DNA from: Desulfomonilia bacterium
Lineage (GTDB): Bacteria; Desulfobacterota; Desulfomonilia; UBA1062
Length of the DNA: 45,787 bases
Direction: 5' to 3'
NCBI GenBank assembly: GCA_050014195.1
Contig: JBEKDT010000024.1
Span: forward strand, 1-45,787
This document shows, in pieces, positions 35,843 to 36,043 of this stretch (positions within the stretch are counted from its first letter, which is position 1; the number at the start of each line of letters is the position of its first letter). The translations under genes and the position numbers were made by a program. The notes beneath the pieces were generated by a model, which was not told the origin of the DNA, ran no database searches, and saw only the letters and a program-made list of their open reading frames with translations.

Positions 35843-35870
35843 GTAGTGAATAAATTAGTCGAGGAGATGT

Positions 35871-35972
35871 ATGCTGTTGTCAAGACCTACTCATCATATT
35901 GCACATGCATCCGCGAACATGTGCTGCTGCATGTGTATGTGCCGCTTAAGGGGATGGGGGGTGTCCATGTAG
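35871..35972 (+). CDS. Putative Cys/Met-rich attenuator leader peptide (MLLSRPTHHIAHASANMCCCMCMCRLRGWGVSM)
   Basis: GAGGAG RBS at 35861, ATG 35871, TAG 35970-35972. Codons 17-24 are ATG TGC TGC TGC ATG TGT ATG TGC. Directly upstream of a terminator and metY. Confidence 0.8.
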   Translation: MLLSRPTHHIAHASANMCCCMCMCRLRGWGVSM

Positions 35973-36000
35973 GGTAGAGTCCTGCAGACACGCAGCAAAC

Positions 36001-36043
36001 AAAACCATTCCCGGCAAGGAGCACGGCCGCGAATGGTTTTTTT
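36001..36043 (+). terminator. Attenuator terminator hairpin upstream of metY copy 2
   Basis: AAAACCATTCCCGGC / GCCGCGAATGGTTTT stem (one mismatch), 10-nt loop, T7 run ending 36 nt before the metY start. Confidence 0.85.

Follow-up and report, generated by a model that had tools for sequence, protein, structure and literature searches.

A candidate ribosome-mediated transcription attenuator with mixed methionine and cysteine control codons upstream of metY in a Desulfomonilia bacterium

Leader-peptide attenuation is established for tryptophan, histidine, leucine, threonine, phenylalanine and isoleucine/valine, and methionine genes are, in the textbook account, controlled by riboswitches, T-boxes or proteins. 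For cysteine, we know only of the translational poly-cysteine open reading frames (ORFs) of mycobacteria. Here, we examine 45,787 nucleotides of DNA from a Desulfomonilia bacterium (Desulfobacterota; UBA1062; GenBank assembly GCA_050014195.1, contig JBEKDT010000024.1, positions 1 to 45,787 of the forward strand), the whole of which we call the window, and in which a short leader ORF with a run of methionine (Met) and cysteine (Cys) codons stands, together with an intrinsic terminator, in front of metY. Very probably, this element works as a trp/his/leu-type, ribosome-mediated transcription attenuator with control codons for Met and Cys, and the gene that it would regulate, encoding an O-acetylhomoserine sulfhydrylase, fits sulfur amino acid control. 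Its novelty lies in specificity and target, not in mechanism. The core of this reading, namely a Met/Cys leader, an antiterminator, a terminator and metY, had been proposed in a first-pass annotation made from the DNA letters, and it is upheld by comparison with relatives.

Classical attenuators, comprising trpL, hisL, leuL, thrL, pheL and the ilv leaders of Proteobacteria as well as the trp leaders of Actinobacteria, resemble the metY leader in having a short leader ORF, a run of codons for the pathway product and a terminator; their ribosome-gated antiterminator, which uses the terminator 5' arm, has a predicted counterpart in it. Unlike these, the metY leader mixes Met and Cys codons, has metY as its target, and holds the 5' strand of its predicted antiterminator wholly inside the ORF, and a conserved segment 1:2 'protector' is not evident in it. 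The classical mechanism is summarised in two papers (10.1101/834739 and PMC1262725). The second of these (Seliverstov et al. 2005) predicts leader peptides with Cys runs in Mycobacterium, Propionibacterium and Bifidobacterium, where they stand upstream of cys/cbs operons; it found no conserved terminator hairpins in these leaders, proposes Rho dependence for them, and reports no conserved RNA regulatory structure for the methionine operons of Actinobacteria. The first-pass annotation had pointed, correctly, to such Cys-only actinobacterial predictions. As described there, the actinobacterial leaders are Cys-only and their targets are not metY, whereas the metY leader is mixed and is followed by a terminator.

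A further parallel is offered by the leaderless polycysteine short ORFs of mycobacteria, the 'Cys ribulon', in which ribosome pausing senses cysteine (Canestrari et al., bioRxiv 10.1101/834739). One of them, Ms5788A, is described there as acting on translation, by sequestering a downstream Shine-Dalgarno sequence, without transcription termination (10.1101/834739). As portrayed in the same text, these ORFs share with the metY leader an upstream position, consecutive Cys codons and the control of sulfur or cysteine genes, and differ from it in being leaderless and Cys-only, whereas the metY leader has a ribosome-binding site, Met codons and a terminator. The transcript here does not look leaderless, with a ribosome-binding site and ~45 bases between the predicted -10 and the leader ATG; neither does the arrangement suggest Shine-Dalgarno sequestration, since a canonical terminator with a U-run precedes metY and the metY Shine-Dalgarno lies outside the fold. 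The SAM-I (S-box) riboswitch occupies the same niche before methionine genes and senses S-adenosylmethionine (SAM) directly by RNA, without translation. Rfam scans of the leader at gathering and permissive thresholds gave no match to a SAM, T-box or leader family (the best was atpB, 16.9 bits against 37.4), and no SAM riboswitch was found by such scans in the window. In its accessible portion, the survey by Naville and Gautheret (PMC2965389) mentions no Met or Cys leader. A search of the full-text literature, which did not extend to subscription journals and supplements, so that a prior description is possible, found no mixed Met/Cys leader, methionine leader peptide or metY leader.

The components of the leader in the window are the following.

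35543-36079, intergenic region between a cystathionine gamma-synthase-like gene (- strand) and metY (+ strand)
35861-35866, + strand, Shine-Dalgarno GAGGAG of the leader ORF, 4 bases 5' of its ATG
35871-35972, + strand, leader ORF of 33 codons, ATG at 35871 and TAG at 35970-35972, peptide MLLSRPTHHIAHASANMCCCMCMCRLRGWGVSM
35919-35942, + strand, control codons 17-24, ATG TGC TGC TGC ATG TGT ATG TGC, for Met Cys Cys Cys Met Cys Met Cys
36001-36043, + strand, intrinsic terminator, stem-loop 36005-36036 with an A/U extension and U-run 36037-36043, core -14.1 kcal/mol
36070-36075, + strand, Shine-Dalgarno GGAGAG of metY, outside the folded leader region
36080-37390, + strand, metY, O-acetylhomoserine sulfhydrylase (homocysteine synthase), TIGR01326 at 645 bits against a cut-off of 495

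The leader ORF lies 108 bases 5' of metY, and its control run consists of five Cys and three Met codons without interruption. All the parts named in the first-pass annotation (the 33-codon ORF, its GAGGAG ribosome-binding site, the eight consecutive Met/Cys codons, then the terminator and metY) are thus present in the sequence. A scan of all six frames of the 4.2-megabase genome for ORFs of 10-80 amino acids, scored by Met and Cys per 8-residue window, confirmed that the element is real and more than a product of chance: only one of 85,564 small ORFs, the metY leader itself, reached 8/8, and six reached 6/8. The sole other candidate examined in the genome as a second Met/Cys leader (C15:73977-74045, MIGSYLHHSNIGGVMGMCMGCC) was rejected, lying inside a 98-amino-acid ORF in a phage-like-looking region. 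Translation of the leader ORF is something that we infer from its start codon, ribosome-binding site and frame, and from what relatives have kept of them.

Homologous leaders precede metY orthologues in four genomes from two genera (G002, G018, G065 and G066) and metY in five metagenome contigs (L104, L106, L110, L134 and L136), the latter recognisable as homologues by a shared G-G-x-x-M-stop tail. The Met/Cys run, whose conservation upstream of metY orthologues had been proposed as one test of the idea, is kept in all nine. Moreover, the homologues retain an open frame, the start codon and the terminator, with ORF lengths of 26 to 40 codons, and purine-rich equivalents of the Shine-Dalgarno stand before the leader ATG in the four genomes; peptide N-termini, by comparison, cannot be aligned between genera. 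Where this was counted, in eight members, 9-10 codons separate the last Cys of the run from the stop. Between the window and G002, several residues differ outside the run and none inside it, and Cys codons alternate between the synonymous TGC and TGT among G018, G065 and the window. Varied N-termini combined with a conserved start, ribosome-binding site, frame and run are the signature of a leader peptide, for which what counts is that it is translated and which codons it contains, not the peptide as such. The runs of the family read as follows.

Window and G002, MCCCMCMC
G018, GCCCKCMC
G065, CCRYMCMC
G066, RMCMGMC
L110, MVMCGLMCCC
L134, MMMCCMSMC
L136, MMCMC
L106, LMCRMAM
L104, LMRGMAMPM, Met-only, read as HLMRGMAMPMR with its flanks

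These runs range from Met-only through mixed to Cys-dominant, with at least one Met in ten of ten members and at least one Cys in nine of ten. Such variation bears on two explanations in which the peptide itself would be the functional product. According to the first, the ORF would encode a small Cys-rich protein with a function of its own, such as the binding of metal or sulfur, and would be co-transcribed with metY; its position next to sulfur metabolism genes and to an Rrf2 gene, itself followed by a class-V aminotransferase gene read as cysteine-desulfurase-like, is in keeping with this. Only the run is conserved, however; the Cys count falls to 0-2 in family members, a terminator intervenes between ORF and metY in every leader searched, and the same architecture recurs with unrelated peptides, all of which leaves a small protein hardly credible. 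According to the second, the nascent peptide (…CMCR…GG..M) would arrest the ribosome on a small molecule such as SAM or homocysteine, in the manner of TnaC and tryptophan, so that charged transfer RNA (tRNA) would not be the signal. A C-terminal motif, C/M-C-R … G-G-x-x-M-stop, does recur in the homologous family, but it falls on the stretch that holds the G-rich strand of the predicted antiterminator and the stop-codon hairpin, and constraints on the RNA thus account for it; furthermore, unrelated metY leaders share the Met/Cys run and nothing else, and residues outside the run vary freely even between the window and G002. We regard peptide-mediated arrest as very improbable.

How far the family extends was assessed in two ways. 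A covariance model was derived from seven leaders, and a search of 122 genomes of the class with it gave real matches in G000, G002, G018, G065 and G066 only. Weak matches in G053, G062, G063 and G064 were rejected, as they lack both a Met/Cys-run leader and a downstream metY, two of them ending in a stem with a T-run. Additionally, a pattern scan of 185,579 species genomes, specifying the stop-codon hairpin and the terminator arm and no Cys or Met codon, returned 33 matches, three of which have an in-frame Cys-rich ORF upstream and are G002, G018 and G065; the other 30 have none, and inspection of three of these, in two contigs of Terriglobia and one of a deltaproteobacterium, showed no homology. 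The leader-bearing metY has its closest orthologues in G002 (87%, same genus, gene truncated) and G018 (84%, another genus of the family). Counting the genome of the window, only 2 of the 15 genomes in the genus carry the leader-metY unit, which may have been acquired horizontally, to judge from this distribution. Public sequencing runs containing the stretch are 24 DNA runs from peat and wetland metagenomes, with no RNA run among those listed; contigs of four DNA runs over 35780-36110 are identical to the window and therefore supply no natural variants.

Leaders of this kind are not confined to the homologous family. A MetY protein scan of metagenomes yielded 80 loci, 75 of them with at least 250 bases upstream, and 15 of these 75 carry a Met- and/or Cys-run leader. 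Beside the five homologues named above, ten leaders before metY are unrelated to them in sequence (L135, L139, L143, L146, L160, L163, L166, L167, L168 and L171). A terminator was found in 12 of the 12 metagenome leaders searched; in L104 and L106 the stem and T-run were identified by eye, and L143 stands outside the count. When leaders were picked by a Cys-only criterion, ten were found, and in nine of them the eight residues concerned also include two or more Met, so the Met codons are not an artefact of the search.

This last count also weighs on the possibility that a single amino acid, either Met or Cys, is sensed and that codons of the other type are passengers, tolerated since the alternation of ATG and TGY aids RNA pairing. 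Since leaders span a range from Met-only (L104) and Met-dominant (L106, G066) to Cys-dominant (G018, GCCCKCMC) and, in the unrelated L146, Cys-only, neither residue is strictly required across the class, as single-residue sensing would allow. Yet both types are abundant in the window (five Cys, three Met), nearly all Cys-picked leaders contain Met as well, the family has Met throughout and Cys in all but one member, and any codon in the run whose charged tRNA is rare would stall a ribosome, so that mechanically both should count. Sensing of one residue is accordingly unlikely, and we favour control codons of both kinds.

Two cases among the unrelated leaders deserve mention in their own right. 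In L139, a Met/Cys leader ORF (~968-1171, …INMAMCLCCMMMC…) has its own terminator just after it, followed by a SAM-I aptamer at 1256-1380 (68.3 bits against a gathering threshold of 44.4), a second stem with a T-run seen by eye, and metY at 1501; by its sequence, this locus is a putative tandem of a ribosome-read and a metabolite-read sensor. L160, L166, L168, L171 and L143 form a separate leader family, …HGIAxMAMCMCMxCGPVRxxLERxMR, located ~140-350 bases upstream of metY. This family lacks a ribosome-binding site, and its ATG comes ~7 bases after the end of a -10-like hexamer, GATACT, so these leaders look leaderless; they resemble the leaderless sensory ORFs of mycobacteria and differ in having an intrinsic terminator after them.

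The ability of the leader RNA to adopt alternative structures was evaluated by folding, for which two further features are needed.

35950-35957, + strand, 5' strand of the predicted antiterminator, GGGGATGG, within the ORF, its 3' end 12 bases short of the stop codon
35968-35974 / 35980-35986, + strand, stop-codon hairpin TGTAGGG / TCCTGCA, nested in the predicted antiterminator

The terminator stem pairs CCATTCCCGGC (36005-36015) with GCCGCGAATGG (36026-36036), with seven T following (36037-36043), and the hairpin is present in the minimum-free-energy fold of 35855-36050. A consensus scan of the + strand listed neither a leader promoter nor the terminator, the latter, we think, because its loop exceeds the 8-base limit of the scan; we relied on folding and conservation instead. 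Four of the 11 aligned terminator stem pairs still pair after changes on both sides, as do three of the seven pairs of the stop-codon hairpin, in one to two sequences each (alignment A2). Stability of the whole leader is another matter, its fold barely beating shuffles (z = -1.98). This marginal value speaks against a metabolite- or protein-binding structured RNA in which the ORF would be incidental, an idea that draws on the nucleotide-level conservation of the 3' part (G-rich strand, stop hairpin and terminator). It is opposed, too, by the lack of any Rfam family at threshold, by the preservation of start, ribosome-binding site and frame through insertions and deletions in multiples of three, and by the synonymous Cys changes; taken together, these make an incidental ORF extremely unlikely and favour a translated leader.

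In the predicted antiterminator, GGGGATGG (35950-35957) pairs with CCATTCCC (36005-36012), part of the terminator 5' arm, and encloses GTGTC/GACAC and the stop-codon hairpin. In G002 the corresponding strands are GGGAATGGG and CCCATTCCC, one G-U pair having become A-U. Folding under a ribosome constraint was carried out on seven homologues, masking the messenger RNA through 11 bases past the A-site codon and folding onward to the terminator 3' arm. With the ribosome stalled at the first or middle control codon, the terminator 5' arm pairs upstream in all seven, and with the ribosome at the stop codon the antiterminator pairing is lost, as the first-pass annotation had anticipated. For the window, 11 of 14 arm bases are paired with a stall at codons 17 and 21, and only 5 of 14 with a stall at codon 24; the early control codons should therefore be the effective ones, in agreement with the earlier proposal that only early stalls free 35950-35957. 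The stability of the stalled-state fold exceeds that of dinucleotide shuffles in seven of seven homologues, with 0.3% to 10% of shuffles matching it, so the alternative fold is energetically feasible. In nine unrelated leaders, the fold with a mid-run stall likewise pairs part of the terminator 5' arm upstream in every case, from 7 of 11 bases at the least to 15 of 17 at the most.

The first-pass annotation had described three competing pairings. Two of these, the terminator and the predicted antiterminator, recur in relatives as set out above. The third, a 'protector' duplex between the control codons and 35984-35997, does exist in the window (-17.7 kcal/mol, equalled by 3% of shuffles) but is not conserved: apart from the window, only its near-twin G002 has a strong one, whereas G018 has none (-3.7 kcal/mol) and the values for G065, L110, L134 and L136 are those of shuffles. 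It was thus rejected as a conserved part of the device.

Several observations weigh against the attenuator reading or some part of it. The distribution is patchy, at 5 of 122 genomes of the class. In G002, the metY behind the leader lacks its first ~140 codons, the protein match starting at residue 144. The leader and terminator of that genome (L031 = G002:C7, ~2720-2930, minus strand) are intact and 87% identical to the window; either the regulatory element outlived its gene or the assembly is at fault. As regards the antiterminator, the folds do not surpass shuffles in how many arm bases they pair upstream, 13% to 61% of shuffles doing as well; when duplexes were compared across members, cognate G-rich segments performed no better than non-cognate ones; and a G-rich strand facing a C-rich arm pairs easily from composition alone. 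The geometry is borderline as well: assuming, as we do, a footprint that reaches ~12 to 15 bases upstream of the P site, a ribosome at the stop codon would cover the 3' part only of 35950-35957, and one stalled on any of the last three control codons would itself sit over this strand. Finally, the unconstrained folds of G002 and L136 are already the antiterminator. An antiterminator is likely on these predictions, its particular helix being moderately supported by the models.

The attenuator would then operate as follows. A promoter with a probable Rrf2-repressor operator would drive transcription from a point ~35 to 40 bases 5' to the leader ATG, and a ribosome would translate the 33-codon leader while RNA polymerase moves ahead. 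When charged tRNA-Met or tRNA-Cys is scarce, the ribosome would stall on the first ~five of the eight control codons (35919-35933), leaving the G-rich 35950-35957 free to pair with 36005-36012, so that transcription would read through into metY. When both tRNAs are plentiful, the ribosome would cover 35950-35957, reach the TAG (35970) and melt the stop-codon hairpin; the terminator (36005-36036) could then form and transcription would end at the U-run. The product of metY makes homocysteine, from which methionine is formed and, via transsulfuration, perhaps cysteine as well.

The promoter region adds a candidate second layer of control, with the following putative elements.

35797-35802, + strand, putative -35 hexamer TTGACA of the leader-metY promoter, recurring with a 17-base spacer in G002, G018 and G065
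35820-35825, + strand, putative -10-like hexamer TATCTA, 17 bases after the -35, a weak consensus match
35823-35846, + strand, candidate operator CTAGTATATCGATAGTATTAGTAG, directly after the -10
~32824-32846, 33010-33050, 35592-35614 and 35823-35846, operator-like sites of a putative local regulon
32361-32801, - strand, Rrf2-family regulator gene, its protein bearing a C-x6-C-x5-C motif

TATCTA stands before the leader in G002, G018, G065 and G066, and TTGACA with its 17-base spacer is found at three other promoters of the window. The shared module consists of TTGACA, the 17-base spacer, the -10 and then CTAGTnnATCGATAGTAnT...; its operator part is also found after the -10 at two further promoters, the divergent cystathionine gamma-synthase-like one and that of the Rrf2 gene, and cysK (33132) has a related form upstream. 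Elsewhere in the family, the operator module lies before Rrf2 genes (G066, G018 and G067) and before cysK (G003). The Rrf2 gene of the window is followed by a class-V aminotransferase gene, read as cysteine-desulfurase-like, and we take the C-x6-C-x5-C motif of its protein to be the iron-sulfur (Fe-S) ligand pattern of IscR-type Rrf2 members. From the recurrence of these sites, the candidate operator is probably bound by the neighbouring Rrf2 regulator, which would be autoregulated. On the strength of this co-occurrence, we infer that metY is controlled twice over, at the promoter by an Rrf2 repressor that regulates its own gene and in the leader by the Met/Cys attenuator.

Other genes of the locus related to sulfur metabolism are listed below.

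34400-35542, - strand, cystathionine gamma-synthase-like gene, NF005871 at 519 bits against a cut-off of 513
28029-29306, - strand, second metY-type gene, 66% identical to the leader-controlled metY, the genus-typical copy, 7 kilobases away
26952-27878, - strand, second pyridoxal phosphate-dependent gene, cysK-like by a PALP Pfam match, adjoining the second metY

The second metY and the cysK-like gene follow fdhD and nadA in the same orientation. Among relatives (L003-L030), no Cys-run leader lies directly upstream of metY paralogues of this genus-typical type. Downstream of the leader-controlled metY are genes for a DUF2325 protein (37720-38148, + strand) and a DUF3034 protein (38175-39149, + strand). 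Elsewhere in the window, group II intron RNA matches occur at 1841-2441 (- strand) and 2709-3081 (+ strand), scoring 114.8 bits with the D1-D4 model and 52 bits with Intron_gpII, and a ribonuclease P RNA gene (class A, 318 bits) adjoins the two.

In a conserved Met and Cys leader followed by an intrinsic terminator, the classic mechanism would gain a specificity that it has lacked, in the form of a sensor that would read two amino acids in one run. The signature of a Met/Cys run and a terminator before metY would be usable to annotate sulfur amino acid regulation in uncultured bacteria, and the drift from Met-only to Cys-rich runs provides a natural series for how codon composition sets the specificity of an attenuator. 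What this window adds is the pairing of such a leader with a candidate Rrf2 operator. The chances seem to us about even that Met/Cys-run leaders represent a widespread, unpublished alternative to SAM riboswitches for metY, acting as a two-input OR gate (uncharged tRNA-Met or tRNA-Cys) that is stacked here on a Fe-S-type Rrf2 repressor, and whose weighting would be tuned by Met/Cys codon swaps, as the occurrence of Met-only, mixed and Cys-dominant members in one homologous family implies. If this is true, homocysteine synthesis in this bacterium would answer both the translational demand for sulfur amino acids and its Fe-S/cysteine status.

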